DNA of 64,000 nt, taken from positions 1-64,000 of the forward strand of contig JBBRPR010000038.1 in assembly GCA_038227875.1 (NCBI GenBank). Direction: 5' to 3'. The stretch's first letter is position 1, and every line of letters starts with the position of its first letter. A program made the translations under genes and the position numbers. The stretch comes from Planctomycetota bacterium. GTDB lineage: Bacteria; Planctomycetota; SZUA-567; H5-PLA8. Shown here one piece after another: positions 11,002 through 52,090 of the stretch. Under the pieces are notes generated by a model. It searched no databases, had not been told where the DNA came from, and saw nothing but the letters and a program-made list of their open reading frames with translations.

Positions 11002-11162
11002 GTTGCGCCTCGCTGATTGGAAGTTGCAGGGCCATGATACGGAGATGGAACTGCCGGGCAAGCAGCACGTCGAAATAAATCCATCAAGGTGCGTGCTTAA
11101 GTTGACCCTAATTTGAAATTAATGCGCTTGTTTTGAAATTTTACGTCTTTATTTATAATCAA

Positions 11163-11180
11163 AATACAACTAAGTGTATT
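11163..11180. promoter_or_regulatory. Palindromic operator candidate AATACA-N6-TGTATT
   Basis: AATACAACTAAGTGTATT in the divergent intergenic region, 16/18 identical to 7049-7066. Confidence 0.55.
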
Positions 11181-11237
11181 ATTGTGTACTTGAGCGCATC
11201 TCGCTCATTTGTCGACACTTCGGGGGAGACTGGCATC

Positions 11238-23000: not shown

Positions 23001-26000
23001 CCGTTTCCGTACGATCCGTGTTGGCCGGTGCTTCGATGCTGAAATTTCCGCCGTTGAACGTGACGACGGCAGCATCGGGAATGCGATTGGGATTCGCCAC
23101 GCCGCTGGCATCGATATCCAGCGTGCCTCCGGTGTTTAGCGTAACACCGCTGGTGGCCAGTGTCCCGGTGTCGCCTTTCAGTTGCAGCGTGCCGCCGTTG
23201 ACCGTCGTCGCGCCCGTGTACGTTTCGGCAGTGGTGAAAACCAGCGTGCCCAGCGCAGACGTGGAACCGGCCGTGATCGCAAAAGCTCCGCTAATCGTAT
23301 TGGAGAAGGTCACCGTACTTCCGGTCGCCGCCGTAAAAAACGTATTCGAACCCATCGTCACCGTGCCATTAAACGTGCCGGTCGTGCCGGAGAGCGAACC
23401 GATCGTGTTCGTGGACGCGCCGTTACCTGTGGTCGTGATGTTCTGCGGAATCGTGACGTTGCCGTCGATCAGCAGCGCCGCGTTGGCGACCGCGCGGTTG
23501 AACGTCGCGCCGTTGACACCGATTGATGCCGGAGCGCCCAGCGCATTGTTGTTGGCCAGCGCCAGCGTGCCGCACCACACCGCAATGGCCCCGGTGAACG
23601 TATTGTTGCCGCTCAATTCCACCGTGCCGGTAAACGAGCCGGCGGCGTCGCTGTAGCCGACATTCAAATTCGGTCCGCTGACCACGCCGCTGTTGATCCA
23701 CACCGTACCGGGGTTGGCCAGGAAGAACGAGCTGTTGATGCTGATAGCGCGGTTACCCGTAAACGTCGTCGCGCCCACGGCCGCGATGGCGTTGTTGTTG
23801 GTCATGATCAGCGTATTGACCGGGTCGCCGAAACTGGCGTCGCTGTTGAACTCCAGATTCGTCGCGTTGGCCATGGAAAGATTAGCGATGTACGTGTTGG
23901 CTCCGGCCAGCGAGAGCCATGCATCGGAATTTCCAATCAGGTTCAAAGTCTGCCCGACTCCGCCGCCGCTGATCACACCGGTGATCACGATGGGTGTGGC
24001 GGACGTGGTGTTGTTGGGAATGTTGATCGAGATGCCCGTCACGCCGGCGCCCAGCGTCATCGGATTGTTTACATTCGTCACGGCCGTAAGCGTAAATGTC
24101 GTCCCGTCATTGAGTGTAATGGTCGTGGCGGGATCGCCGAGTTGGTTGGCGTTGCTGATCTGCAGAGTGCCTGCCGCAACGGTCAGGAATTCTCCCGCGC
24201 CGCCGAAGGTGTTGACGCCGGTCGGAAGCAGCGTTCCGGTGTTGGTCTTCGTCAGCGAATTGGCGCCCGAGATCACGCCGGAAAGCGTCAGCGTCGTGGC
24301 CGCCGCGACGTTCAGTGTGCCGTCGCCCGCAGCCATGATGTAACCGCGGGCGGAGGTGAATGTCGCAGTCGTCGCCAGCGTACCGCCGCCGAGCGTCACG
24401 GTGTTGGCGGCGTTGCCCAGATTGTTGTCGGCTGCAATCGAGAATGTACCGCCGCTGAGAGTCACGGCGCCGGTAAACGTGCTGGCCACGGGACTGGTCA
24501 GTATTCCGGCTCCAGTTTTCGTCAGCCCCGCCGCGCCGCTGATGATGCCGTTGAGCGCCGTGGCGCCGTCGCTGTTGACCGTCACCAGCAGGCCGCCGTT
24601 GTTGATGGTTCCGCCGATCGTCAGCGTGCCGCCGGCCAGGCAGGTGATCGTCGGCGCGCTGGTGGCGAAGATCAGCGGGATGCTGATGGAGTTGGCACCC
24701 GCAAAATTATTGTTCACCGCCGCCGCGCCGCCGTTGAGCGTCACGCTGTTGCCACTGAGCGTGTAACCGGAATCGGTGAATTGAATCGAGCCGAACGTCG
24801 TCGCCGCAGCGAAATTGTTCGTGTTGGTGGTCTTTCGTGCCGCACCCGCGGCTCCGAAAATCAGATTGTCGCCGACCCCTGGCGCAACGCCGCCGACCCA
24901 GTTGCCTCCGGTCGTCCAGTTGTTGTCCGCGCCTGCGCCGTTCCAGGTGAAATTTCCGACGAAGCGCGTGATCACCACACTGTTGGCGTTGTACGTGATC
25001 TGAAAATTCAATCCACCGATCGCAAAGATGGCGTTGTTGGCCAGCCCGGTGAATGTGTTGGAGATCGCGCCAGTACTGGTAAGAATCGTATACGTATCGC
25101 CGTTAAGCGGCACATAGCCCAGCGTGGCGTTGAGCGTACAATTGGTGAGATTGACCGCGCCGGTGACTGCAATCTGGTCGTACCCGGTACCGACCGTTGT
25201 CGAATTCAATTGCACTTTCAACGATGACGCGGCGGAAAATGAGAGCGCACCGGTCGCCAGAGTTTCGGGATTCGTGTCCGGATCGCCGGCGCTCAGCGTG
25301 CCGCCCGCAACAGTGACGCTGCCGCCGACCGCTCCCGTGCCGCCGAGCGTCGCGCCAGCGCTTACGGTTACCGCGCTGCCGGCGGCAAGAGAACCGTCGA
25401 CGAGCAGAATTCCCGTACTCACCGACGTTGCACCCGTATACGTGTTGACGGCCGTCAGTGTCAGCGTGCTGGAACCCGCCTGCGTCAGCGTGCCCGTGCC
25501 ACCGATGACATTGCTGACGGAATACGCATTGGTCCGGTTGAAAACCAGCGCCGCGTTGTTGGTGACACCGGCGGTGCCGAGCGTACCTGTCGCGCCCGCG
25601 TTTCCGATCTGCAACGTGCCCGCGCTGATCGTCGTTGTTCCGGAATACGTGTTGGCACCGGTGAGAATCGACGTACCTGTGCCCGCCTGCGTCAGCGTGC
25701 CCGTCCCGCTGATCACATTGGCCACGGTCATGCTGTTGGTGCGGTTGAAGGTCAGCGCCGCGTTGTCGGTCACCGCGCCCGTGCCCAGCGTTCCGGTCGC
25801 GCCTGCATTGCCGATCTGCAGTGTGCCGGCGCTGATCGTGGTGGTTGCCGTATACGTGTTCGCACCCGACAGGATCACGGTCCCCGCGGAGGATTTGGTA
25901 AATGCCCCCGCGCCCGCGAGAATTGCCGAAACGGTTCCGGCCTGCATGTCGAACGCCGTCGCACTCGTCACCGTGCCGTTTTGCAACGTACCGTTGTTGA

Positions 26001-26907
26001 CCACCGATACCGTCGGAATCGTCAGAGACTGGGCGCTCAGGTCGACCGTAGCGGTATCAACTTTTAGTGTCCCAGACACAGTTGTTGCGGCGGCGATGGT
26101 TTTCGTACCGCCCACACTGCCGGTGAGATTGACGTACGCTTTCGCGAGCACCGCCTGATTCGCATTCGCGTCGTAGACGACCGTGGCGCCGGTGCCGTTC
26201 AGCGTAACCGTATTCACACCCGTGCCGGATAGCGTCCACGGCGTCGCGTTGCCGAGGTTCAGCGTCGCGCTGCCATTGGTCATGGTAAAGCTTGACGTGT
26301 TGGCTGCGTTGGCGTTGACGGTCGTGAGTGTGCCGTTGACATCCACCAGCCCGCTGCCAAACGTGAAGGCAGCATTGTGAATGCGGGCGTTGCTGGTACC
26401 GATGAAACTGTTGAGCGTCAGAGTGCCAGTCACTACAAACGACGCGATCGACGAGGTCATCGTCATCGCGTAGGTACCGTTAACCGTGGAAGCCACCGCC
26501 GTACCCACGACCACCGTCGCGCACTGCAACGAGCCCGCGCCGGCGATAGTACACGCTGTGGCGCTGTTCAGCAGGCCTTTCAACGTAACGGAAGTGGTGA
26601 CCGTCAGGGTAAAGCCGGCGTTCACCGTGACCGTTCCCGAAGTGCTGCCGAACGCCAGGGAATTGCAGGTCCGGTTGCCATCGACAGTCAGAGTGAAGCC
26701 CGTGCCGACAACGATGTCATCGGTCGCCGCCGGAATAACGCCACCCGGCCACGGCGCGTTGTTCACCACGGAACTCCAGGCGCCCGATCCCGTCGTGGTG
26801 ATTGTCGCCGCCTGCGCGCTGGCGCCAAGGAACAGTACCACCAACGCCGCAGCAAAAATCCCTGCGCGCATCCGTGACTGCACCTCTGGCCATCCAACCA
26901 TCCTCAT
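17095..26907 (-). CDS. Giant secreted adhesin with autotransporter-associated beta-strand (PATR) repeats and a C-terminal pilin-like domain
   Basis: Signal peptide; many LTKxGxGTLxLxGxNTYTGxTxxxxGTL repeats; three internally repeated WNGxG...NWVGGVAPGVGD modules; no C-terminal beta-barrel; last ~140 aa align with the C-terminal domain of the four paralogs at 29487-33229. Confidence 0.9.
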   Translation of the reverse strand: MRMVGWPEVQSRMRAGIFAAALVVLFLGASAQAATITTTGSGAWSSVVNNAPWPGGVIPAATDDIVVGTGFTLTVDGNRTCNSLAFGSTSGTVTVNAGFTLTVTTSVTLKGLLNSATACTIAGAGSLQCATVVVGTAVASTVNGTYAMTMTSSIASFVVTGTLTLNSFIGTSNARIHNAAFTFGSGLVDVNGTLTTVNANAANTSSFTMTNGSATLNLGNATPWTLSGTGVNTVTLNGTGATVVYDANANQAVLAKAYVNLTGSVGGTKTIAAATTVSGTLKVDTATVDLSAQSLTIPTVSVVNNGTLQNGTVTSATAFDMQAGTVSAILAGAGAFTKSSAGTVILSGANTYTATTTISAGTLQIGNAGATGTLGTGAVTDNAALTFNRTNSMTVANVISGTGTLTQAGTGTSILTGANTYSGTTTISAGTLQIGNAGATGTLGTAGVTNNAALVFNRTNAYSVSNVIGGTGTLTQAGSSTLTLTAVNTYTGATSVSTGILLVDGSLAAGSAVTVSAGATLGGTGAVGGSVTVAGGTLSAGDPDTNPETLATGALSFSAASSLKVQLNSTTVGTGYDQIAVTGAVNLTNCTLNATLGYVPLNGDTYTILTSTGAISNTFTGLANNAIFAIGGLNFQITYNANSVVITRFVGNFTWNGAGADNNWTTGGNWVGGVAPGVGDNLIFGAAGAARKTTNTNNFAAATTFGSIQFTDSGYTLSGNSVTLNGGAAAVNNNFAGANSISIPLIFATSAPTITCLAGGTLTIGGTINNGGLLVTVNSDGATALNGIISGAAGLTKTGAGILTSPVASTFTGAVTLSGGTFSIAADNNLGNAANTVTLGGGTLATTATFTSARGYIMAAGDGTLNVAAATTLTLSGVISGANSLTKTNTGTLLPTGVNTFGGAGEFLTVAAGTLQISNANQLGDPATTITLNDGTTFTLTAVTNVNNPMTLGAGVTGISINIPNNTTSATPIVITGVISGGGVGQTLNLIGNSDAWLSLAGANTYIANLSMANATNLEFNSDASFGDPVNTLIMTNNNAIAAVGATTFTGNRAISINSSFFLANPGTVWINSGVVSGPNLNVGYSDAAGSFTGTVELSGNNTFTGAIAVWCGTLALANNNALGAPASIGVNGATFNRAVANAALLIDGNVTIPQNITTTGNGASTNTIGSLSGTTGTFNGTVTMGSNTFFTAATGSTVTFSNTISGAFAITAGSTSALGTLVFTTAETYTGATTVNGGTLQLKGDTGTLATSGVTLNTGGTLDIDASGVANPNRIPDAAVVTFNGGNFSIEAPANTDRTETVSQLVFSSGDNSISLTPNGTGRTRLASTLAFSRTSGATLNYVRNTGGGTGLAHLTSAAQAAGAVTYATVTIAGVTSSSTYDTTNAADGIVNGLTFAAPVYTSQANTDWNTPSTWTPAGPPTAGSVAIVQNAVTVNSAPANVPFSIAFNPGGSLTQTAGAATTVSVGAGGLIARNGAAATIGGGAIALTVTSATSELIVVTAGTGTLTINNPIVNTNTPALTKSGTGTLKLVAVNTYTGVTTINNGYLLVDGSIAAGSAVSLTGGTLGGTGTVFGTVTSSALGGAISPGDPDSNPGILTTGAVTLNAAADLNIQINGPVVGTNYDQLSVTGAINLGGSTLNSTIGVGYFPVNGTAFTIISSTGAVSGTFAGLPNNTIFPISGQNFKITYNANSVVLTRVVGTYIWNGGGSNNNWSTGFNWVGGVAPGVGDSLLFGAAGAARKTTNTNNIAAGTSFNFIQFQSAGYILNGNGVTLAGGATALNYSATAGANTINNAITFATAAPTVTTIAGGTLTLNGAIDNGGLLVTLASAGATTINGALSNTGGLTSSGAGTVILAGANSYSGTTTISAGSLQIGNAGLTGTLGTGAVTDNAILTFNRTNALTVSSAISGTGTLTQAGTGTTILTGANTYSGLTTISAGTLQIGNAGVTGSLGTAGVTDNGALVFNRTDNIAVSNVVSGTGSVAQAGSGVLTLSGTNTYTGLTAVTAGTLSVASLANGGANSNIGASTNVATNLILDGGTLQYTGAGVTTDRLFSVGINSGTIDSSGAGALNFNNAGAMGFNAAAGTRTLTLTGTNAGSNILAAVVGDNGGATSVAKSNAGTWIFTGTNTYTGTTSINAGTLQIGNGGATGTLGTGAVTDSGALIFNRTAALGVSNTISGTGTLTQNGSGTITLSGTNTYSGATTVNVGTLKAGVATQAFGVNSAVTLANVAGVTLDITGFSNTIGSLAGGGALGGNVTLGAATLTAGGNNTSTAYAGVISGTGGIAKTGTGTLTVSGANAYTGAMTVNGGTLKAGIATQAFGVTSAVTLANTAGVVLDTTGFNNTIGSLTGGGATGGNVTLGAATLTVGSDNTSPAAYAGVISGTGFLTKSGTGTLTLSGTNTFTGGTTIAQGAISVGTVANVSTDQPLGHVPSVTLGSNTQTGTLELTGNTSPSSTMPFTLAAGGTGAFQIDTATNVLTLSGVISSTGALSKTGTGTLKLSGVNTYTGATTVSAGTMLVDGSLAAGSAVSVAASATLGGTGTINGTVTGTGGTLSPGDPDTNPGKLSTGAVSFSSASTFKVQLNGTGAGNFDVLAVTGTLNLTNATLSVTCGYTAANGDAFTIMTSTGARSNLFTGLANNAIFPISGQNFQITYNANSVVLTRVVGNYIWNGAGANDNWSNGANWVGGVAPGVGDTLTFGNAGAARKTTTTNDIAAGTSFNAINFTDAGYTLSGNSVTLTGGAAAINYSATAGANAINNNIAFGTAAPTITTFAGGTLTLGGTLNNGGLLLSVASAGATNLNGVISNSGGISNTGVGSVTLAAAETYTGTTTLSAGTTFVNGTLAAGAGLTTVGNSATLSGTGSVSALTVSSGGVVMPGTPAATGILNAAGNTVFNAGSLYAPLLNGTTLGSTYDQLSVTGTLNVTGATLNVSIGPGLPTTGVTNNFYTIMTSTSAIVGTFNGLPEGGLVMSVDGTQGFSISYLGNAVTLHQVPVLLSAKWIDGLGSSNPGVDAGDTVVLTFSIPVKSTGALIGEIGLPVTGDTFDTSVVVGNATASSTVTITLAGLPQLTPGGTYSPLATSAGVPTGVYIISGIHLKDTFGNFTYSYPTSAAGTAAAVDLLPGGAGVLSVSWDDTTITPRIWDMGSIDLNDVVTASTNTPIPVALNLVNTGTVRQQCTISCSASAPSGWVAGAAPSTDQFQMKADNSVPLTGVFGLNLSTPQVLTSMLYSGQYKAFDLRLTAPTALTKGAGVQQTITVTIVVTQN

Positions 26908-36949: not shown

Positions 36950-39900
36950 TCATTCGCCCATCAGTATCAGGTCGCCCACCGTATCGATCTGCTTGGTGTG
37001 CGGGTTGCCGAACCATCCGATGAAACCCGTGCGCCCCTTGCCGTCGTCTTCGTTCACGATCATCGACAGCCCCAGATTCGCGCCCGCGACGGGCTTGAAC
37101 GGAGCGAGGCGCGACCAGGGAATCGCCAGCTCGTAAACCATGCCGCCCTCGCGCGGTTTGGCGGCGACCACGATGTCCGTCAGCGCACCCACCGGCGTCG
37201 AACTGCTGCCGGAAAGAAAACACCACGCTTGCGGACCCTTCTTGCCCAGCGCCATGCCCAGATCGTACTTGCCCGACTTCTCGCTCGATTCGCGCTTCGG
37301 ATCGATCAGAAATTGCAGCCCGTCGCCCGCCCAGAGTTCGCCGTCCTGCTTCGTGTTGGAGAAGACGTCGTCGCTCACGTCGACCGCGACGTACAGAAAT
37401 TTCTCGTCCCACAAGTAGCGCATCGTTGCCGACAGATCCGCCGCGCCCTTCCACAGCACGTCCTTGTCGAGCGTGAAGTACTGCTGCTTCTGGTCGAGAC
37501 GCTGAACCGGGGCGCGCTTCCAATCGGCTTCGTCGAGCACCCCGTCGATCGACGGCGGCGCAGCCACTTTCGGCACCGCGACGAAACCGCCGAGCATCCG
37601 TTCAGCCGTGAGATTGCCGCCGCTGGCGTCGGTGATCGTCGCGGTCACGGCATAGAGCTTGATCGGGTCGGCGCCGGATACCGGCACACTCACCGCGGCC
37701 TCCTGCTTGGCCGGCACAGTCAGCGTTCCGGTCGTGGCCTCGCTGAAAAACGCCTGCGTCGCCGTCTGCGCCGCGTACTGGCCGTCGATGAGGCTGCGTT
37801 CGCCGCTCAGTGAGATGGACCACGTCAGCGTCTGGGTGTCCGCGGAAAAATTGTGCACGAGAATCTTCGCCGCGGACTTGCCGTCCGCAGCCGCGGGCAC
37901 GGGTCGCACGTCGATCGTCAAATGTCCCGAGAGCGCCGGCCGGAAAGAAAGCTCGCCGGTAATTCCGCCCGCCGCATTGGCCACGCGGATCAGAATTTCA
38001 CCCTCACGCACCGCGCTGGTTTCCGGTGACGTAATGGTGAAGCGAAGCGGCGTGCCTGGGGTCGTCTCCACCTTCCAGCCCAGCGGCGCAAGCAGTGAGA
38101 CCAGCTTCGCATCCACGGTTCCCGCGACGTCGACCGTCGCCGGTACGCCGCGCACCATCGTGACCGGAATCCCGCTCAGCGAAACGGCCGGCTCGCCCAG
38201 CGCATCCGGCAGGTCCGCCGCGCCGTCGAAATTCAACAGCAGCGGATCCTCGTTCAGCGTCAACGTCAGTCCCTTGCCTTCTGCGTCCAGCGCGGAGCGT
38301 CGGCCGTCAATGTGAATCGCCTGCACCGCTTTGACATCCTTCAGCGCGACGAAGATATCCTTGCGCCCCTTGTCCTTCCACAGCACCGCGAACGCATGCT
38401 GCTCCGCGTCGCGGAAGAGCACGGCGTGGATCCCGTCGGCGTAGTTGCGCTCGGTCGAGAATTTCTTGATGCCGATGCCGTTGACAAGATTGTAGAGCGT
38501 CACCGCGTCCAGCCGCGCGGCGTACTTGCAGTAACGGCTGTCGAAGATGTTCATCGCGTCGCCGGAGCTGCCGAAGTTCTGCGCATCGTTGTCGGGGTAG
38601 AGAAAATCGAACCACGAAATATTTGCGCCGCCCGCCGCGAAGAAAACCGCGAACTTCCGGATCATGTCGCCGGCGATGTGCTGCCGCGTCAGGCCTTGAC
38701 TGTTGAGGCCGATTTCCGTCGACCAGATCGGCTTGACGCAGTTGTATTTCTTCATCAGCGCCTGATAGCTCTTGATCGCCTCGCGCACATTCTCCGGCGC
38801 TTCGTAGACGTGAAAATCGAAGGCGTCGCAGGCGTTCTGGTATCCGGCCTGAAAATATTCCTCGGTCGGCGGCACCGACGTCGCCAGCACGATAATCGTC
38901 GGGTCGATCTTCTTCATTTCGTCGTAGACGATCGTGTACGCGTGAACGCTCTCCTTGAGACGCTCGCCTTTGTTGTTCGGCTCATTTCCCAGGTCGATGA
39001 TCAGCGGCCGGTTCTTGCCGAACGTCGCGACGAAATTGCGCGCGCCTTCGCGCAAGGCTTTCTCGTCGTACTTTTCATAGCCGCCGTGATGTCCTTCGAT
39101 CGTTCCCGACGGACAACCCGTCAGGACTCCCATGTTCAGTTCCGTGCAGACGTCGTACATCGGCGCGTCCGGTTTGTATGGCGGCGTAGCAGACCAGCCG
39201 CCCCAAAGCCCGGCAACGCGAATGCCGACACGGTCGGTCAGGCGGATGTATTCCGGAAAGCGGTTGTCCCAATTGCGCGAGGTAAATGGAATCTGATCGG
39301 CCTTGAATTTCTTATTCGGCGCTTCGGGCAGAATCACGAAGCCCGCGAAGTTCTTGAAGGGATCGCCCTCTCCCAGCGGCACTTCCGCGTGGACTTCGTA
39401 ATAGCGTCCAATTTCCAGCGGCGCACCCGCCAGATCAATCTGGCCTTCGTAAACGAGCCGATTCTTGTTCTTGCCCTTCGCCGCCACCACGAGCGAACCG
39501 GCCGCCGTCTGCTCCGCGCCCCAGTAATCGCGTACGATCCAGGAGAGTTTGCGTTCTGCTTCCGTCAGTTCGCGATACGATTCAACCGTAATCGAAAACG
39601 TGCGCGGATCGTCCGGATGAAACATATTTCCCAACTGCGGCGAGGCGAACACCACGCGGTTGACCACCGGAGCCCGCACGCTGCTGCCCGCCGACGACGC
39701 GGTGAGCGCATCGACCCAGAAGCGCCCCTCGCATTTGTTTAACCGCACTGAAAAACGTGCGGCCGCCGCCTGCTTCGGAATCTCCACGCGCTTGCGTGCC
39801 AGTTGCCACGCGTGTTTGCCGAAGAGTTCGCCCACCGTGTGCGTCTCGATCTGTTTGCCCGACGCGTCGAAAATTTCAAATGAGACCATTCCGTTGAACG

Positions 39901-40753
39901 ACGAATCCGGCGACGTCAGTTCCGACTTCAGCGCGCATGAAACCGTCCACTGCCCGGGCGTCACCGGAAATTTCGCGCCTTCCGCCGAGCACGGTTTTTC
40001 AATATCCGCCGCGGAGCGCTGCACCAGCAGCGCATGTTTGCCCTGAAACGCATCTTTCGGATCGATCGAGATTGCGCCTTCGCTCTTCCACTCGGGCGGC
40101 ACCGTCGCCGCGTCCTCAAAGTCGCAGGAGTACGTCGCGGTGTGGGAACTGGCCGAGACGCCCGAGACCCAGATTTTCAGCGGTGTCTTGCCGTCGCCGA
40201 TTCTTCCCAGCAGCAGCACAATCAGGTTCAGCTTGCCGTGCCACTTGCCATCGTTGGCGCCGCCCCAATGCTCGTACTTCGCGACGCCCTTCACCGCTTC
40301 AGCCGTGCCCTGGTTGGCGAAAAAGCGTTCGACGGGAAATGTCACCAGCCGCCAGTCGTCGGAGACCGGATCGAAGTGCAGCGAAATCTGATGGCATTGC
40401 TTCGAGCCGTCGATCAGGCGCATGCCAATGCCCGAGACGCCCGGCGCTTTGATCCAGAACGAGAGCGCCGACAAATTCAAATTCAGCGCCGCGACATCGC
40501 GGCTCATCTGCACGTAATTGCCGCCGCCGGTGAAATCGCCGCTCAGCCGCAAGCTCTCGCGGCCGTCGTGTTTCACCTCCGCGTCGGCCTCGAGTTCGCC
40601 TTTCGCGCCAGGAAATTCGCGGCCGTTATCGAACGCCCAGCCCAGCGCCGGCTTTCCCGAGACCAGCAGCTGCACGTCCTGCTCCGCGCGCACGGAGGAC
40701 AGTGTCGACAGTGCCACTGCAATCAGGACCACGATTGGCATTCGCATACACAT
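36950..40753 (-). CDS. Secreted multi-domain clan GH-A-like glycoside hydrolase with CBM-like domains and C-terminal CBM9-like domain
   Basis: Signal peptide; GNEPN (acid/base), DFHVY, IWSTEIG (nucleophile); C-terminal PSIDGVLDEADW...WDEKFLYVAVDVSDD...YELAIPW. Confidence 0.8.
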   Translation of the reverse strand: MCMRMPIVVLIAVALSTLSSVRAEQDVQLLVSGKPALGWAFDNGREFPGAKGELEADAEVKHDGRESLRLSGDFTGGGNYVQMSRDVAALNLNLSALSFWIKAPGVSGIGMRLIDGSKQCHQISLHFDPVSDDWRLVTFPVERFFANQGTAEAVKGVAKYEHWGGANDGKWHGKLNLIVLLLGRIGDGKTPLKIWVSGVSASSHTATYSCDFEDAATVPPEWKSEGAISIDPKDAFQGKHALLVQRSAADIEKPCSAEGAKFPVTPGQWTVSCALKSELTSPDSSFNGMVSFEIFDASGKQIETHTVGELFGKHAWQLARKRVEIPKQAAAARFSVRLNKCEGRFWVDALTASSAGSSVRAPVVNRVVFASPQLGNMFHPDDPRTFSITVESYRELTEAERKLSWIVRDYWGAEQTAAGSLVVAAKGKNKNRLVYEGQIDLAGAPLEIGRYYEVHAEVPLGEGDPFKNFAGFVILPEAPNKKFKADQIPFTSRNWDNRFPEYIRLTDRVGIRVAGLWGGWSATPPYKPDAPMYDVCTELNMGVLTGCPSGTIEGHHGGYEKYDEKALREGARNFVATFGKNRPLIIDLGNEPNNKGERLKESVHAYTIVYDEMKKIDPTIIVLATSVPPTEEYFQAGYQNACDAFDFHVYEAPENVREAIKSYQALMKKYNCVKPIWSTEIGLNSQGLTRQHIAGDMIRKFAVFFAAGGANISWFDFLYPDNDAQNFGSSGDAMNIFDSRYCKYAARLDAVTLYNLVNGIGIKKFSTERNYADGIHAVLFRDAEQHAFAVLWKDKGRKDIFVALKDVKAVQAIHIDGRRSALDAEGKGLTLTLNEDPLLLNFDGAADLPDALGEPAVSLSGIPVTMVRGVPATVDVAGTVDAKLVSLLAPLGWKVETTPGTPLRFTITSPETSAVREGEILIRVANAAGGITGELSFRPALSGHLTIDVRPVPAAADGKSAAKILVHNFSADTQTLTWSISLSGERSLIDGQYAAQTATQAFFSEATTGTLTVPAKQEAAVSVPVSGADPIKLYAVTATITDASGGNLTAERMLGGFVAVPKVAAPPSIDGVLDEADWKRAPVQRLDQKQQYFTLDKDVLWKGAADLSATMRYLWDEKFLYVAVDVSDDVFSNTKQDGELWAGDGLQFLIDPKRESSEKSGKYDLGMALGKKGPQAWCFLSGSSSTPVGALTDIVVAAKPREGGMVYELAIPWSRLAPFKPVAGANLGLSMIVNEDDGKGRTGFIGWFGNPHTKQIDTVGDLILMGE

Positions 40754-44404: not shown

Positions 44405-44491
44405 ATGCTGGAAATTTCATGCACCCGTGGCGTATCCTGACGACACTCTTTAATGGTGTCCCTGACATACGATTCTTCAGGAGTGGTCACG

Positions 44492-45574
44492 ATGCGCACG
44501 AACGTTCTGTCCGTCTTTCTCCTTGTCGCCACGGCCCTTACGACAACTTCATGGTCGTCCGAACCCGTGCGAGCCATCGCGACGCCCGATGGCGGCGCCG
44601 CGCAGCACGCAATCACCGATGCCGACGGCACGATCCACCTGCTCTATGACAAGGGCAACGAACCGTTCTACGCCAAATCCACCGACGGCGGTGCGACGTT
44701 CTCGGCGCCGCTCCCGCTGGTCGACGCTGCGTCGAAAAAACCGGAACTCAATTACATCGTCTGGGACATGGCGCTGGGCAAGAGCGGCCAGGTGTTTGCG
44801 GTGCTCGGCAATAACGCGTGGCAGCTGAAGTTGCCCAAGGATCAGTTTGGACTTTTTTTCACCACGCTCGAACCTGGCGCAAAAGCCTTCACGCCGCTGC
44901 GCAACATCAATCATGAACCCAGCGAAGGATTCGCCATCGCCGCCGACGGCAAAGGCAACGTGGCGCTCAGTTGGCTGAAAGGAAAGATCTTCGCCTCAAT
45001 TTCACGCGACGGCGGCAAGACCTTTAGCCCCGGCGCGGAATTGAGCCCCAGTTTGAATCCCTGCCCGTGCTGCACCACCGCGCTGACCTACGGCGCCGAC
45101 GGCAAGCTCGCGATGCTTTACCGCGAACAGACCAACGATGACCGGGAACTTTACATGGTCCTCGTCGGCACCGATGGCAAGCAGACCCGCCAGAAAGTCA
45201 GCACGATCCCGTGGAAAGTCAACGCCTGCCCGATGACGTACTACAGCGTCAACCCGTCGAAGGACGGCTACACCACCGCGTACCCGATGAAGGGCGAGAT
45301 TTATTTCACGCGCCTCAGCGCCGACGGTAAGGTACTGCCGCCCGGCGAAATCAAAACCGCCGGCAAAAGCGGCATGCGCAGCGGCATCATCACGGTCAGC
45401 AATTCCAACGGCGACACACTGGTCGCGTGGAACAGCGAAAGCAAAGTGAACTGGAAAGTCTACGACGCCAAAGGAGCGCCCGTCGCCGGCGCCGGTTCCG
45501 GCTCCGAACCCACCCGCGGCAAAGGCCTGGCCGCCGCGCTGGCGAAGGACGGGACGTTTTTGATTTTCAAATAA
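44492..45574 (+). CDS. Secreted BNR/Asp-box beta-propeller (sialidase-like fold) protein
   Basis: Signal peptide; Asp-boxes STDGGATFS and SRDGGKTFS; CPCC and WKVNACPM motifs; AGGAG RBS. Confidence 0.82.
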   Translation: MRTNVLSVFLLVATALTTTSWSSEPVRAIATPDGGAAQHAITDADGTIHLLYDKGNEPFYAKSTDGGATFSAPLPLVDAASKKPELNYIVWDMALGKSGQVFAVLGNNAWQLKLPKDQFGLFFTTLEPGAKAFTPLRNINHEPSEGFAIAADGKGNVALSWLKGKIFASISRDGGKTFSPGAELSPSLNPCPCCTTALTYGADGKLAMLYREQTNDDRELYMVLVGTDGKQTRQKVSTIPWKVNACPMTYYSVNPSKDGYTTAYPMKGEIYFTRLSADGKVLPPGEIKTAGKSGMRSGIITVSNSNGDTLVAWNSESKVNWKVYDAKGAPVAGAGSGSEPTRGKGLAAALAKDGTFLIFK

Positions 45575-46252: not shown

Positions 46253-47416
46253 TCAATCGTCCCTATGTAGCCTTTTGGTGAGCTTCGTGATCTTGGCTTT
46301 CAAATCCGAATCGACAGCCAGCACATTGGCATGCACAACCCAGATCTTTGCGGCTTTCCACTGCCACCAATCGTCTTCCTCCGCGATCCAAAAGCAGCCC
46401 AGCGCCACGGCATCTTTATTCTCAATTTTGTCGGCAAGTTTGAGTATGTCCTCGTCCTTCAGCACACCCGACTTTCCGAGCCCATAGATTGTTTCTGCGC
46501 AGTGCAAGCCGTCCTGCTTCGGTGCACCGGTCACGAGTATGTCCTTCAATTTCGCCACCAACTCCGCCCGTTTTGCTATCACCTCCAAAGCGGCATCCAG
46601 CATCAACGCTTCGCCGTTCGGGCTGGCAGCCTTTTTATAATCAATCGGAGTGGAGTTTGATTTCAGAAAATTCGTTAGGAAGTCTTCAAACCACGCATCG
46701 ACAGCCGGATCCTTTAACGACGCCAATGCTTCCATGAGATTGCGCATGCGATAAGAAGGAAAATACGGTTCCTCGGTTTTCAACAGCTCTGGCCGGAGTG
46801 CATCGGCGGCATGAATCAGTGCTGCAACGGCCCCATCTGAATGTTCGAGGACGTACGCCTTGCCACCGCGTGTGGACTCGACGCTGATGCCTTGAATGCG
46901 TTTGATCGCCTCGGCGAGATCTTTGATCTGCGACTTGGGATCACGAGAATCTCGCTGGCGCTGTTTCGGCCGTGGAGCTTCCGGATCCTTTTCGGCTTGT
47001 TCAGCGGTTAATCGGTCTGCCGCGTCAGCGTCTTTGTCCTCAATCTCCAATGACGCCAGAAAGCGAACTTCGTCTTCGTAGTCGAGCGTGAGAACTGGAA
47101 ATTCAGGACCCATATAATGCACGTTCAGGTATAGAATTTCCTTGTTCACATCCCCACCGTCGATGGAACGCATCCGCGCTGCGCTGATCTTATCGCCCGG
47201 CTTGTGCGTGCCGCGAATCGTCTTCACGACCTGAAATTGCGCGACTTCTTTTTCCGCGTCGTAACTGAGCACCTTTACAACATAGATCTCCGAAGCGAGG
47301 CTGACCGAACTGGCCAGATAGTTATGAATGTTTCAAGCCGGACACGCGCGCGCTGGCGCGGGGAATAGCATAGACATGCAGAGGGTCAGTATCAGGGCGA
47401 GTCGGAAATAGCGCAT
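46253..47416 (-). CDS. Secreted protein with an in-frame TGA at codon 28 (candidate selenoprotein, CxxU; alternatively a nonsense pseudogene)
   Basis: GGGAGG RBS, ATG 47416, signal peptide MRYFRLALILTLCMSMLFPAPARA, then C-P-A-TGA (47335-47333), continuing in frame into the 339-aa track ORF 46253-47272. Confidence 0.75.
47301..47317 (-). promoter_or_regulatory. Bacterial SECIS-like hairpin
   Basis: CUGGCC-AGUUC-GGUCAG; the loop starts 21 nt after the UGA and has G at position 2 followed by U. Confidence 0.55.
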
Positions 47417-47728
47417 CGCGGCAGCCTCCCATAAAGTTCGTGAATCCTTCACACCATTGCGTTGCGTCGAGTCACGCGAGCAGTTGCATACGACTCAAAA
47501 ATATTTTTCAAATTTATCCGCCTAACCACCCCCTCGGCGGAGATATATCCAATGAAAGGGGTGAGGACAATGCGCTCGGCAAGTTCATCCGAAATACCGC
47601 TGTCCTGCACCCGTGCACAAGATTTGACTGAGGATTTTTCACAATTCAGTGCTGAAGTCAGCCGATGCTCAGTTTGATCTTTTGATGGGAACTGGCGGCA
47701 GGAAAAGCTAAAGAACGAGGAGCGAATC

Positions 47729-47966: not shown

Positions 47967-50900
47967 TCACTTTTCTGTAGGAGCCTGCCCTGAGCTCGTC
48001 GAAGGGCTTGTCGAAGGGCCCACCAGCACCAAGTCGCTCACCTCCATCGTCTGCTCCATATCTCCTGAAATCAGCCCGACCCCCAGCGTCGTGATCCGAT
48101 CCAGATGCAGCGGCTCGTTCTGCATCCCCGGCGTGAAATAACGCAGCGTCTCAAACGGAATGTAAACCGTGTGCCACTTCCCGTCCGCGACGAACAGATC
48201 GTTGGCGCGAATGTCGCTGTGCCCGTCAACCAGGATCAGCATGATGCTCCGCCCGCCGCGCTTCAGCACGCGGCCGCGCAGCACAATTCCGGACGTGTTC
48301 TTCGCGTCGATCGGCTTGGGCACCGTGAAGTACGGGTACGCCCACGCGTCGCCGGCGCGGTGGAATGTCACATCCATGCGCCAGATCTTGCCGTCAGGGC
48401 TGGAGAACACTTCCTTGGAATCCCCGCCGCCGCGCACCTGCCAGCGCTTCAGCTCCGCGATCGGCAGCGCGTCCTGCCGCGGAAAACGCGCCAGAATCTC
48501 ATCGCGCTCCCCTTCGACCAGAAACGGCAGCGCCAGCGGCAGAATGTTCGGCGCGGCGTCGCAGCTCGCGGTGATGCGAATCAAGCGGGCTTCGCACACA
48601 TCCAGAGCGGCCGACGCGTCCACCGTCCACGACGCTTCAGCGATGGCGTGTGCCGCGAGGGTCACCGGCGCGTGCGCGAATTCCTTCGACCCCGCGCCCG
48701 GCAGATGCAGCGTCGGCGTCACCGTCAGCGGCGCATCGCCGAGATTCTGTAGCCGCACCGTCAGCGGCAACGCCGCGGCCGTGGCCCGGTCGACAAAATA
48801 CGCCCGCTTGGAAATCTCACCCACCTTCGGCGAGTACGAAAACTGCAGCACCACCGGCGAAGCCGGCGCGCGCTTCGGCAGCGCCGTGCGGCTGGCCGCC
48901 AGCAACGCCGCCGCCGGCGTCTTGGTATTCAATGCCTCACCCAGTGTCCCGCGCGCAAACCACACGTAGCCCAGTCCATCCGGAAGCGGACAAGCGCCGT
49001 CGGCCGAAAGTTTCAACACGCGCCCATCGGCGCCGCTCACGCGCAGCGGCACCGCCGGCAATTTGACTTCGCACTTCGGGTCCACGTTCTCCGTATACAG
49101 CACTGCGACGTCCTCGCCGTCCTGGTTGGAAAACACGCGCGCCAGCCGCACGCGCGGATCATCGACGCGCAAATCCCCGCTGTAGTCGCGTCCAGCAAGA
49201 GCGTCCGCGCACCACGCGTACGCCGCGAACGAACGCAGCGGCGTCACTTCGCGACCGAACATGCTGAAACTTTTGATTCCGCCTTCCTCGTAAAACGGCA
49301 GGCAGAACGGAAAGTAGCGCGCCACGCCGCACGCGCGCGCTTCCACCGCTTTCGCGCTGATCTCCCGCGCGCTGTCGCGGTCCTGATCCAGCGGCGGGCG
49401 GCTGGGCCCCAGCACCCACGGATGCCCGCACTCCGTCACCCAGATCGGCAGTCCCGACTTGCCCGCTCCCGTCACGTACTCGCGGCACGCCTGGATCTGC
49501 CCCTGCACCAACGGCGCGCGATCGTACTGATGGACCGACAGCGCATCGAGACACTCCAGCATCCCGTTGGCGGTGCACGCGTCGTAGTACGAACCTTGCG
49601 GCACATTCGCAAACACGCCGCCCACCGTCAGTCGGTGCGGCTCGCTGTGATCGGCCGCGTACGCCTGAGCTTTGCACATCACCGCGTACTGATCGGCCGG
49701 CATGCCGGGCATCGCCAGATCCGGCTCGTTGCCCACTTCACCCGCCGCCCAGCCCTGCCCCCAGCGCACCGTCAGCGCCGACCACGCCGTCGCCGTCTCG
49801 ACCAGATTCTGTGAAAAACTGTGATTCAACCCCGGCTCAAAATGCGCCGGCTCACCCGACATCAGTTCCAGCACCTCCACGCCGGCGTCGCGGTACATCT
49901 TGCGCAGCGCGTCGCTCTGCCGCTTGCCGTTCTGCCAGTCGTACTCGCCCGGCTTGGGGTTGATCGCATTCATGCTCAGCCGTTCACGCGCGACGCCAAT
50001 GCCCGTACGCTTGAGCGCCGCGATCAGCCCCGCGCGCATCTTCTCGCGCGTCTCGAGCGTGGAGAGTGCCGCGTCGATCCCGAAAAACGGATCCGCGCGC
50101 CCACCTAGCCCGGTGTGAGCTTTCATCGCGAGCACGCCAAACGCCTGATGCGTCGGCCCAAACGCAATTTCATAATACCCGCGCGGCAGATTCACCGGCA
50201 CCGCCAGCGTGCCGTCCGCCGCGAACACCGCGTCGCCGCTCGCGACGGTCTTTCCCGTGTAATCGCTCACCGTGTACGGCACGCGCTCGCTGGGCCCGCG
50301 CACCGCCGCCGTCCAGCGTAGCGTCACCGGAACATCCGGATCGATCAGCAGCGCCGCGAGGTCCACGGGCTCCAGCCCCGCCACCGTCGCGCTCTCCACC
50401 GTGATCTGAAAATTCCGGATCAGCGGCGCGTTGGGCGTCACCGGCTCGTTGAAACGAAAACCCGCCTCCGTGGATGCCTGCGCCGATGCGCTGCCCGGAA
50501 ATGCTTTCGCGTCGAGCACCGTCGTGCCATTCAGCCGCGCCGTCACCGTCCGCGCTTCCGTATCGAGGACCAGCTCAGCCAGATTGAAACCCTTCTTCAC
50601 CAGCGCCGCGTCCGTTTTGGGAATCAGATTGGTCTTGCCTACCATCAGCGCGTACCCGCCCTCGCGAATCGAAAACAGCACCTCGTATGATTTCCAGAAA
50701 TCGCTCGACAGATTGCCGTGCCCGAAAGCCAATCCCGCAAAACCGCACCCCGCCGGATCCAGTTCCGCGCGCAGCGTGATCTTCCCCGCGATCGCCGGAA
50801 TCGGCAGATGCCCGCCGCCCGGCGAAGCGTTCGACATCGTCGCGCCCTTCGCCGTCACCAGCACTCCGCTGAACGCCGTCCACGCCGGCTTCCCCGCGCC

Positions 50901-51050
50901 GAGTTCTCGTCCCTCCAGAGCCACATTCGCCGGCGCGATCAACGTGTCCGGAAAAACCAGCGCGCCGGCCGAGACCGGAGCGGGCGTCTCCGCCGCTGAC
51001 AGCGCAGCAAACATCATGAACGCGGCGAGCACAGCGCAGATCGTTTTCAT
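47967..51050 (-). CDS. Secreted clan GH-A-like (GH39/GH5-like) glycoside hydrolase with CBM-like C-terminus
   Basis: Signal peptide from ATG 51050 (ATGA overlap with the LacI stop); EVGNEPD, LSVHQY and IWVTECG motifs; WHTVYIPF CBM11-like end. Confidence 0.8.
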   Translation of the reverse strand: MKTICAVLAAFMMFAALSAAETPAPVSAGALVFPDTLIAPANVALEGRELGAGKPAWTAFSGVLVTAKGATMSNASPGGGHLPIPAIAGKITLRAELDPAGCGFAGLAFGHGNLSSDFWKSYEVLFSIREGGYALMVGKTNLIPKTDAALVKKGFNLAELVLDTEARTVTARLNGTTVLDAKAFPGSASAQASTEAGFRFNEPVTPNAPLIRNFQITVESATVAGLEPVDLAALLIDPDVPVTLRWTAAVRGPSERVPYTVSDYTGKTVASGDAVFAADGTLAVPVNLPRGYYEIAFGPTHQAFGVLAMKAHTGLGGRADPFFGIDAALSTLETREKMRAGLIAALKRTGIGVARERLSMNAINPKPGEYDWQNGKRQSDALRKMYRDAGVEVLELMSGEPAHFEPGLNHSFSQNLVETATAWSALTVRWGQGWAAGEVGNEPDLAMPGMPADQYAVMCKAQAYAADHSEPHRLTVGGVFANVPQGSYYDACTANGMLECLDALSVHQYDRAPLVQGQIQACREYVTGAGKSGLPIWVTECGHPWVLGPSRPPLDQDRDSAREISAKAVEARACGVARYFPFCLPFYEEGGIKSFSMFGREVTPLRSFAAYAWCADALAGRDYSGDLRVDDPRVRLARVFSNQDGEDVAVLYTENVDPKCEVKLPAVPLRVSGADGRVLKLSADGACPLPDGLGYVWFARGTLGEALNTKTPAAALLAASRTALPKRAPASPVVLQFSYSPKVGEISKRAYFVDRATAAALPLTVRLQNLGDAPLTVTPTLHLPGAGSKEFAHAPVTLAAHAIAEASWTVDASAALDVCEARLIRITASCDAAPNILPLALPFLVEGERDEILARFPRQDALPIAELKRWQVRGGGDSKEVFSSPDGKIWRMDVTFHRAGDAWAYPYFTVPKPIDAKNTSGIVLRGRVLKRGGRSIMLILVDGHSDIRANDLFVADGKWHTVYIPFETLRYFTPGMQNEPLHLDRITTLGVGLISGDMEQTMEVSDLVLVGPSTSPSTSSGQAPTEK
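47983..48018 (-). repeat. REP-like repeat embedded in frame at the 3' end of the hydrolase gene
   Basis: CCCTTCGACAAG-CCCTTCGACGAGCTCAGGGCAGGC, with a partial duplication, encoding PSTSPSTSSGQA. Confidence 0.6.
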
Positions 51051-52090
51051 TTCGGGATTCCTGTACACGACGCACGTTCAACAATTTTCGGAGACAAGCG
51101 GATCGTCCTAAACGGACTCGGCGGAATCTTCCCCGCGATCACGTCCAGCAGCAGCGCGATCGCCGCCCGGCCGTTTCCGCGCGCTTCCAGAGAAACAGAA
51201 GTGATCGGCACCGGCCCGCTCGCATCCCGCGGCGCGTCGTCGAAACCCAACACGCTCATCCCCGACGGCACGCCGATTTCCGCCACGCGCAGCCCCATCA
51301 CCACCGCGCGCGCCAGCATGTCGTCGGCCGCGTAGATCGCCGTGGGCCGCTCCGCCGCAGGACGCTCACGCAGCGGAATGGCGAACTCCACGCCGCCGTA
51401 CTCGTTGTCGCCCGTCTCGAAAATATCCGCCGCATCCACGCGCGCGCCGACCGCCAGCAGCGCGTCGCGCAGCCGCTGCAGCCGGTTGCGGTGAAGTTCC
51501 CCGCGCAGCCCGGGCACCCGCGTCGCCGTCGCGATCCCAATGCGCCGATGCCCCAGCCCGACGAGATAGTCCGCGCCCAGCTTCAGCGCCGAGAATTCCG
51601 ACATGCCGACGAGGTGCCCCATCTTGGACGGCCCGCCCAGAATCACGAACGGCATCCGCGCCGCATGCAACTTCTCGACCGTCGCTTTCAGTTGCTCGTT
51701 GGATCCGCCGGCCGGGCACCAGATCACGCCGTCGACGCGGTTTTCGCAAAACTGGAGCAGCCCGGCGAGTTCGCGCTGCGGATCCCAATCGCAGAATTTG
51801 ATCGCGATGGCATTCTTGCTCTGCTCCGCCGCCGCCTGAAATTCTTCCAGATGCGGCGCGAAAAACTGATTCTCCATCCCCGGCAGCATCACGCCGATGA
51901 CCCGCGAGCGCCCGCTGGAGAGCGCGCTGGCCAATTGATTGGGCACATAATTCATCCGCCGCGCCACATCCGCAACGCGCAGCCGCGTCTGCTCCGCAAT
52001 CCGCCGATCGCCCCGCAACGCCAGCGAGACGGTGGAATTATCCAACCCGGTCTCCCGAGCCACTTCGACGATGGTGACGCGCTTCCCCAT
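51047..52090 (-). CDS. LacI family transcriptional regulator
   Basis: VTIVEVARETGLDNSTVSLALRG HTH, YVPNQLA hinge, LGHRRIG, SVLGFDD. Confidence 0.95.
   Translation of the reverse strand: MGKRVTIVEVARETGLDNSTVSLALRGDRRIAEQTRLRVADVARRMNYVPNQLASALSSGRSRVIGVMLPGMENQFFAPHLEEFQAAAEQSKNAIAIKFCDWDPQRELAGLLQFCENRVDGVIWCPAGGSNEQLKATVEKLHAARMPFVILGGPSKMGHLVGMSEFSALKLGADYLVGLGHRRIGIATATRVPGLRGELHRNRLQRLRDALLAVGARVDAADIFETGDNEYGGVEFAIPLRERPAAERPTAIYAADDMLARAVVMGLRVAEIGVPSGMSVLGFDDAPRDASGPVPITSVSLEARGNGRAAIALLLDVIAGKIPPSPFRTIRLSPKIVERASCTGIPK

Follow-up and report, generated by a model that had tools for sequence, protein, structure and literature searches.

Is a TGA that breaks a long reading frame just after a signal peptide a stop codon, or is it read as selenocysteine (Sec)? 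This question is raised by a gene of a Planctomycetota bacterium (GCA_038227875.1, contig JBBRPR010000038.1), located at 46253..47416 on the minus strand of a stretch of 64,000 nucleotides (positions 1 to 64,000 of the contig). This whole stretch is called the window here, and all coordinates without a prefix refer to it. An earlier note on the window proposed that the UGA is read as Sec, in an exported protein with an N-terminal CxxU. The proposal is supported. Judged from sequence, the gene is highly likely to be a genuine selenoprotein gene, because the TGA is conserved in four assemblies, Cys stands at its position in about 70 homologue clusters, the hairpin downstream of it is conserved and is of the type seen in other genes of this genome, and the Sec machinery is present. 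The product is very probably an exported bacterial protein with Sec as mature residue 4, the first such member seen in an uncharacterised family, whose predicted fold is otherwise familiar from protease inhibitors of animals.

The Reading Frame and Its Internal TGA

All features of the gene described below are on the minus strand. A Shine-Dalgarno-like sequence, GGGAGG (47425..47430), is separated by an 8-nt spacer from the ATG at 47416-47414. Codons 1-24 (47345..47416) encode MRYFRLALILTLCMSMLFPAPARA, which contains two Arg, a hydrophobic core, and the ending A-R-A, and which would be a signal peptide with a putative signal-peptidase-I site at A-R-A/C. The next four codons, TGT CCG GCT TGA (47333..47344), correspond to Cys25-Pro26-Ala27-Sec28, the predicted mature residues 1-4, based on the sequence and on the alignment of homologues. 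The in-frame TGA is at 47333..47335. It is followed by 359 sense codons in the same frame, until the stop TGA at 46255-46253. The whole coding sequence (46253..47416) contains 387 codons, including UGA-28 as Sec, and this stop. The ribosome-binding sequence, the ATG, the 24-aa signal peptide, CPA-TGA, and the long frame were all confirmed as first described by direct reading of the letters.

As had been predicted, automatic gene calling cuts the gene short. The open reading frame (ORF) list under translation table 11 contains the truncated frame 46253..47272 alone (339 aa, with a GTG start at 47272). The database entry P0004 is the same 339-aa product, which starts too late to include the signal peptide, the motif, or the first helix.

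The TGA at 47333-47335 is unchanged in three independent contigs, X3 (47186-47474), X4 (47141-47347), and X7 (47213-47363). They come from runs of three other studies, and X7 is from an RNA library. Since the TGA is kept in the contigs of three other studies, it is no assembly error.

Cysteine at the TGA Position in Homologues

A profile search against 1.84 billion cluster representatives yielded 111 matches at E <= 1e-3, 92 at E <= 1e-10, and 45 at E <= 1e-30, with the best values reaching E 3.9e-69. Most family members have a signal peptide that is directly followed by CPxCNI[HYF]NYL. In an alignment of 87 rows (A3), both motif Cys columns are C in all 73 rows that cover them, where the U of two Sec-form rows was written as C. 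Around them, Pro is conserved in 70 of the 73 rows and N29 in 69, while E116 is seen in 86 of 86. The 87 rows contain no further conserved Cys column. Altogether, about 70 homologue clusters have Cys aligned to UGA-28 within an invariant CPxC. Among 71 members, the most common form is CPAC (29), and CPYC (9) and CPHC (8) are also seen. One Cys form, in a metagenome-assembled genome of Flavobacteriales (L023), is readable as DNA: FFA / CPACNIHNYLSASV. Based on the alignment, Sec would replace the second Cys of the family-wide CPxC.

The residues before the first Cys are informative about processing. Signal peptidase I follows the AXA rule, and bacterial lipoproteins follow the lipobox rule. In the 71 members, position -1 is A, G, or S without exception, 70 have a small or aliphatic residue at position -3, and position -2 is variable, including R, W, K, D, and E. 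All 71 carry the motif immediately behind an AXA-type site. The lipobox [LVI][ASTVI][GAS]C fits only 6 of the 71, and A-R-A-C of the protein encoded in the window does not fit it. A bacterial lipoprotein was considered, but the rarity of the lipobox and its absence from the protein itself do not fit this reading. The AXA-type pattern and the rare lipobox indicate that signal peptidase I should leave Cys as mature residue 1.

TGA Forms in Other Genomes

The genome that contains the window (G000, 9.3 Mb) was compared with 60 relatives by a six-frame search. The only other carrier is G008, from the same family, so that the gene is seen in 2 of 61 genomes including its own. The G008 gene encodes MSLHMRLVSAILLFAAIPASG, followed by CPAU NIHNYLAGSV. 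It contains one in-frame TGA, at the aligned codon.

A sample of the phylum gave matches at E <= 0.01 in 4 of 401 genomes, including the own genome and two weak matches. It yielded G087, also of the Planctomycetota, and in the order of G087 one of six genomes matched. The G087 gene (L017:1147-3282 on contig C6; 711 aa) reads ...AAQLRA / YTYU DTFHYLAGRV and has a C-terminal ankyrin-repeat region (Ank_2, 209 bits). A ResB-like cytochrome c biogenesis gene is located upstream of it and is transcribed divergently. Because the G087 lineage reads YTYU, the partner Cys is not obligatory.

Metagenomes were scanned with a pattern that demanded Cys-Pro upstream of the TGA, and YTYU-type forms were for this reason out of its reach. 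It gave 15 loci, of which two are real and the other 13, with their short frames, match by chance. The two real ones, L029 and L035, represent one gene of an AT-rich organism, which reads ...VYSSINA / CPAU NIHNYLITSV and continues for 424 codons beyond the UGA (446 aa). G008, G087, and L029/L035 all carry the TGA at the codon that aligns with the one in the window. The TGA forms from the four assemblies share 26-38% protein identity, and their frames are otherwise intact.

Database entries of the family are often incomplete at the N-terminus. In A3, 14 of the 87 rows stop short of the motif. Two entries are proven to be truncated: P0009, which is part of the G008 gene, and P0060, which has zero tree distance to L029. 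About a dozen more are probably truncated at a UGA as well. Further N-truncated members are P0010, P0012, P0037, P0048, P0064, P0068, P0078, P0079, P0082, P0085, P0089, and P0092.

A quick tree of 80 rows, for which 10 A3 rows shorter than 300 aa were dropped and P0003 (first 375 aa), L029, and L023 were added, places the three Sec lineages in separate, well-supported small clades; support was calculated by the Shimodaira-Hasegawa-like approximate likelihood ratio test only, and the deep branches are weak. The clades are G000 with P0010 and G008, G087 with P0012 and P0048, and L029 with the identical P0060. Each of them consists of Sec forms or N-truncated products only. An extra clade, P0085/P0078/P0089, is truncated throughout. 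We infer that the remaining truncated products are also Sec forms.

The Hairpin Downstream of the TGA

The described 6-bp hairpin is present exactly as proposed. It starts 15 nt past the UGA (47301..47317) and is composed of the 5' arm CUGGCC at 47317-47312, the loop AGUUC at 47311-47307, and the 3' arm GGUCAG at 47306-47301. It resembles a selenocysteine insertion sequence (SECIS).

The stem is identical at 12 of 12 nucleotides in G000, G008, and G087. The three proteins are only 26-32% identical, and identical residues share their codon in 34-40%. When residues that are identical in all three and have four-fold or higher degeneracy are considered, the codon is shared in 7 of 32. The stem contributes three of these seven (CTG, GCC, and GTC), and the columns beyond it contribute 4 of 29. 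At codon 41, Ser is changed to Arg with the paired AG kept, and at codon 39, Ser is changed to Arg with the paired G kept. G008 and G087 keep the hairpin together with the TGA, and the homologues with Cys have it aligned to the TGA, as would be expected from the earlier note.

The loops of G000, G008, and G087 are AGUUC, GGUUC, and GGUCG, respectively. Contig X7 contains T>C at 47311 (plus strand), which replaces the A at the start of the loop by G, and Ser by Gly; the resulting loop, GGUUC, is that of G008.

Hairpins of this shape are rare in the genome. They follow 358 of 276,457 TGA trinucleotides (0.13%), when the shape is defined as a stem of 6 bp, four or more of them G-C, that encloses an RGU loop and lies 9-24 nt past the TGA. 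A narrower form, spaced 13-19 nt from the TGA and with AGUU or GGUC at the beginning of its loop, follows 63 TGAs (0.023%). The definition of the shape was chosen post hoc, when the data were already known.

Selenocysteine Machinery and Other Selenoprotein Genes

The genome encodes a complete set of the components looked for: tRNA-Sec (71.5 bits; SeC with tca by ARAGORN), selA (530.7 bits), selB (343.1 bits), and selD (301.6 bits). In G008, tRNA-Sec scores 71.2 bits and selA 544.5 bits, and in G087, 72.1 and 502.3 bits; selB is over the cut-off in both. In G439, the genome of the Cys form L023, whose completeness is unknown, the best tRNA-Sec score is 42.6 bits against a cut-off of 47 bits, and selA has no match. 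A search of the own genome for Sec-containing FdhA gave neither a match above the cut-off nor an in-frame TGA.

The genome contains 20 copies of the exact motif CTGGCC-N4-6-GGTCAG. Two of them are 15-18 nt past an in-frame TGA in a long frame. One belongs to the gene studied here, and the second to a redoxin-like gene on contig C32 that encodes an exported product (...FWNADVAC-U-GGP, loop GGUCU).

A crude scan of the genome for such hairpins gave 66 candidates, six of which belong to known families. All six have the UGA at the position of the active-site Cys, loops of AGUU/GGUC type, and spacers of 13-19 nt. Two are AhpC-TSA/Redoxin genes: L045 (C21:66360-67481; WGTH-U-GAC, loop AGUUG, 19 nt) and L047, the gene on C32 mentioned above (C32:79219-80307; AC-U-GGP, 18 nt). 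L046 (C30:55964-56572; W-U-GAC, loop AGUUU, 19 nt) encodes a thioredoxin (59.8 bits). L048 (C49:42142-42984; G-U-FW, loop AGUUU, 13 nt) encodes MsrA, with TIGR00401 at 119.4 bits, over its cut-off, and PF20939. L049 (C22:11314-11670; G-U-VTC, loop AGUUU, 16 nt) encodes an ArsC-family (seleno)protein, with NF041106 at 141.6 bits, also over its cut-off. L050 (C62:48710-49162; GMT-U-PVNC, loop GGUC, 17 nt) encodes an exported, MerP-like protein with HMA (35.5 bits). Gene callers would cut all six short.

The RGU loop in these genes is by construction, because the scan required it; the recovery of known families is not. The scan provides an organism-specific SECIS consensus, a GC-rich 6-bp stem with an AGUU/GGUC loop 13-19 nt past the UGA, which recovered six other selenoprotein genes. 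The hairpin of the gene studied (AGUUC, 15 nt) fits this local consensus. One further candidate, L051 (C25:36591-38933), a transporter of the MMPL family, was rejected. Its TGA and hairpin are 43 codons into the open frame and before the domain. The scan was probably misled here, and translation of this gene would start farther downstream.

Predicted Structure

AlphaFold2 with the 87-row alignment gave a model with a predicted local distance difference test (pLDDT) value of 91.7 and a predicted template modelling score (pTM) of 0.87. Its N-terminal part is composed of a signal helix (2-17), a helix that starts at the motif (26-40), and the strands 44-53, 58-68, 76-80, and 93-97. The remainder is a charged linker of about residues 126-160 and then helices only, to the end. 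In the model, residues 25-125 (47042..47344) form an OB-type beta-barrel flanked by a helix at either terminus, which resembles NTR/TIMP domains of known structure. The linker (46937..47041) is of low confidence, with mean pLDDT of 58-74 in the blocks of residues 121-160, and it corresponds to alignment gaps; most of it is missing from G008 and G087. Residues of about 161-387 (46256..46936) are predicted to be an all-helical ARM/HEAT-like repeat domain, for which structural matches are weak.

Foldseek with the whole model gave weak ARM/HEAT matches (best E 3.7e-3), and the ESM Atlas gave HEAT-repeat relatives of the C-terminal part (0.89), which serve as a lead only. A structure search independent of Foldseek placed NTR/TIMP modules on residues 23-124. 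In the structural alignments to TIMP-3 and TIMP-1, Cys25 (model residue 3) comes first and pairs with residue 1 of either protein. According to these models, the protein consists of an NTR/TIMP-like OB domain and an ARM/HEAT-like solenoid. A thioredoxin fold was considered and rejected: the domain is an OB barrel, there is no thioredoxin-like chain among the matches listed, and no Pfam match to the thioredoxin family was obtained.

Sequence searches are silent on the fold. A profile search against PDB sequences matched no solved structure (best E 0.059). Pfam and NCBIfam gave no match to the core in the protein itself and the 87 members, and the protein has no Pfam match even at E <= 1. The sole Pfam matches in the family are ankyrin repeats, in 2 of the 87 members. 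The claim of the earlier note that the protein matches no recognised selenoprotein family is supported as far as Pfam and NCBIfam are concerned. The protein is not without a recognisable fold, given the predicted NTR/TIMP-like and ARM/HEAT-like domains.

At the tail of the profile search there are two short matches, P0114 and P0115, with a CSC-type N-terminus. P0114 matches the Pfam agrin NtA model at 24.4 bits, below the cut-off of 25.1. These two suggest a wider unannotated set of bacterial NTR/TIMP-like proteins.

Possible Roles of the N-Terminal Cys/Sec Pair

The recoding mechanism would be the canonical one. SelB with Sec-tRNA(Sec) would read UGA-28 while bound to the hairpin at 47317-47301, as in ordinary SelB/SECIS decoding. 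The preprotein would be exported via the general secretory pathway, and signal peptidase I would cleave after Ala24. The free N-terminus, Cys1-Pro-Ala-Sec4, would then cap the first helix of the NTR/TIMP-like OB domain, and the ARM/HEAT-like solenoid is presumably a partner-binding surface.

As a guess, the active centre may be formed by the N-terminal Cys/Sec pair. Three observations favour a role of the free N-terminus: in all 71 members the motif lies right at the predicted cleavage site, the modelled fold is TIMP-like, and G087 keeps Sec without Cys1. As a tentative proposal that falls short of an even chance, the alpha-amine, the Cys1 thiolate, and the Sec4 selenolate may form a metal-ligating claw, which binds either the catalytic metal of a partner enzyme, in the style of TIMP, or a thiophilic ion. 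Its most specific version is a Sec-armed TIMP-like protein, whose free N-terminus plugs or captures the metal of a metalloenzyme held by the ARM/HEAT-like domain; this is unlikely. If it were true, this would be the first selenoprotein of the NTR/TIMP fold and the first case of a selenolate used as an inhibitor warhead and not as a catalytic residue.

Another possible role is in redox chemistry, which is plausible but on balance doubtful and is rated slightly below the metal claw; some different function altogether is given a smaller share of the probability than either. Here, CPxU would form a redox-active selenylsulfide at the N-terminus of a helix, as in glutaredoxin, DsbA, and SelW-type proteins, and would act on a partner held by the ARM/HEAT-like domain, and it would not serve as a metal ligand. 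The predicted helix 26-40 indeed starts at the motif, the second motif position is Pro in nearly all rows as counted above, and the variants CPYC and CPHC are the motifs of glutaredoxin and DsbA. Three other exported selenoproteins of the genome are redoxins or thioredoxins. According to a 2026 review, a redox function is assumed for most CxxU/UxxC selenoproteins (PMC13188914, in the part available), which is in favour of such a role. However, the predicted fold is NTR/TIMP-like and not thioredoxin-like, and the G087 lineage has Sec but Tyr in the place of the partner Cys. Redox chemistry also offers no obvious reason for a motif placed exactly at the signal-peptidase site, yet it is there in every one of the 71 members.

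Other Readings of the UGA

Three other explanations concern the UGA itself. If the TGA were a true stop, the gene would start at the GTG at 47272, and the 27 codons upstream of the TGA would be a mini-ORF or non-coding. The ORF list and the 339-aa database product P0004 are in line with this. However, the 20 codons from the TGA to that GTG, the first possible downstream start, are conserved as protein: 12 of 20 residues are identical between G000 and G008, and 5 of these 12 differ synonymously. The truncated product would also lose helix 1 along with the signal peptide and the invariant motif. Initiation at the first downstream start of the G008 gene would delete the whole N-domain; the called product P0009 begins at profile position 111, although the about 80 codons before it are open and conserved. 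In addition, the Cys forms run through this point without interruption. A true stop is therefore very improbable.

The UGA might be read through but not as Sec, with near-cognate Trp or Cys or by other suppression. Nothing specific favours such read-through, which would equally yield a full-length protein. Several facts are against it. The gene and its G008 orthologue themselves terminate in TGA. The TGA forms of G000, G008, and G087 are seen only where the Sec machinery is present, the hairpin is of the type that accompanies known-family selenoprotein genes in this genome, and the position is an invariant Cys elsewhere. Together these make non-Sec read-through highly unlikely.

A pseudogene, a recent nonsense mutation, or a sequencing error from TGT or TGC is hardly conceivable: most homologues do have TGY (Cys), from which one transversion yields TGA, but the same TGA is present in four divergent assemblies with intact frames and in the contigs of three other studies, is followed by a conserved hairpin, and appears in three separate clades of the quick tree.

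Several results count against decoding as Sec and have to be set beside the evidence for it. selA is over the cut-off in 29 of 61 genomes of relatives; the Sec machinery is common among them, so that it is a necessary condition with no power to discriminate. Folding of the 76-nt stretch gives -14.8 kcal/mol with z = 0.51, and 139 of 200 shuffles are equal or better. In the three rows compared, none of the 6 stem pairs has compensatory changes, because the stem never varies. The hairpin of L029 is weak and different (CCUC-GGUC-GAGG, -4.8 kcal/mol, 22 nt past the UGA). Rfam gave no match on 47150-47450. The Sec-form loci readable as DNA are four only. Transcription is represented by two 151-nt contigs from a single RNA library, which possibly contains DNA. 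With regard to function, no conserved gene neighbourhood is shared among the loci of the window, G008, G087, and L023, and no protease neighbour is kept. The neighbours are regulators of LacI/GntR/AraC type, a GH32 hydrolase, and unknowns in the window, Peptidase_U32 and LeuA in G008, a sigma-54 activator and the ResB-like protein in G087, and a porin and ASL at the L023 locus.

Other Features of the Window

The scan for promoter and terminator at the locus was uninformative. The flanking genes, 47967-51068 on the minus strand (1033 aa) and 44453-45574 on the plus strand (373 aa), match no Pfam family at E <= 0.001. The window contains very long open frames, at 17095-26907 (minus strand, 3270 aa) and 11133-16154 (plus strand, 1673 aa). 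Further long frames are at 7099-11061 (1320 aa) and 36950-40753 (1267 aa), both on the minus strand. Such long frames are typical of large Planctomycetota genomes.

Position among Catalogued Selenoprotein Families

Known and predicted selenoprotein families are listed in Table 1 of a 2026 review, where each of the families compared has a Pfam, NCBIfam, CDD, or PANTHER identifier; among these families, which make up most of the table, no counterpart is found by name (PMC13188914). The accessible parts of the deep-Sep (PMC12013277) and BSepDB (PMC13326102) reports mention no similar family. In the literature search, no paper linking selenocysteine with TIMP-like proteins was found, and among papers on Planctomycetota selenoproteins nothing relevant was found, as judged by title. 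The gene very probably founds a selenoprotein family not yet catalogued. As far as the families compared in the review table show, this is a new family in a fold class that is not among them, and it would add the NTR/TIMP-like class (PMC13188914). Recognition of the family would also single out the mature N-terminus CPxC/CPxU as the putative functional centre in over 100 secreted proteins that are so far uncharacterised. It would make it possible to test whether bacterial TIMP-like modules are tied to metal or redox chemistry.

Comparison with Known Systems

The closest comparison is within the same genome. Like the redoxin, thioredoxin, MsrA, ArsC-family, and HMA selenoproteins, the gene has the UGA at the Cys of its homologues, a GC-rich hairpin with an RGU loop 13-19 nt downstream, and the same Sec machinery. 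Several of these known-family proteins also have a signal peptide. Unlike them, the protein described here has a predicted NTR/TIMP-like and ARM/HEAT-like fold and no Pfam or NCBIfam model, and its Sec would be mature residue 4.

In Rdx proteins, CxxU is at the start of a helix. The protein resembles this SelW/Rdx type in that its CxxU pair, with Sec in the second place, opens a helix of the model. SelW/Rdx proteins are cytosolic and have a thioredoxin-like fold, whereas the protein here is predicted to be exported and its modelled fold is NTR/TIMP-like. SELENOW-like is listed as CxxU in Table 1 of the review (PMC13188914).

The TIMP/NTR superfamily includes TIMP-1, TIMP-2, and TIMP-3, agrin NtA, PCOLCE NTR, complement C345C, and meteorin NTR. 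No member of the Pfam TIMP/NTR families is matched here by sequence, and the sole sequence link is the sub-threshold NtA match of the tail member P0114. The domain here is bacterial and fused to a helical solenoid, in contrast to these members. As in TIMPs, an N-terminal Cys1 would be located at the signal-peptide cleavage site, which is predicted in our case. The motif is CPxC/U here and CxC in TIMPs. In TIMPs, disulfides tie the N-terminal Cys1 and Cys3 to the barrel, and the zinc of the protease is chelated via the alpha-amine and the carbonyl of Cys1. Disulfides of the TIMP type are impossible in this family, because no other Cys column is conserved.

A bacterial case is known from Listeria, where the TIMP-like lipoprotein Tim is paired with the metzincin Mtz (PMC8235301, as far as the available text covers it). 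Like Tim, the protein here is a bacterial extracytoplasmic protein with a TIMP-like, in our case predicted, fold. Tim is a lipoprotein, its gene is beside that of its protease, and it is no selenoprotein (PMC8235301), while the family described here rarely has a lipobox and keeps no protease neighbour. Tim can nevertheless be considered as a precedent for TIMP-like modules that act with metalloproteases in bacteria (PMC8235301).

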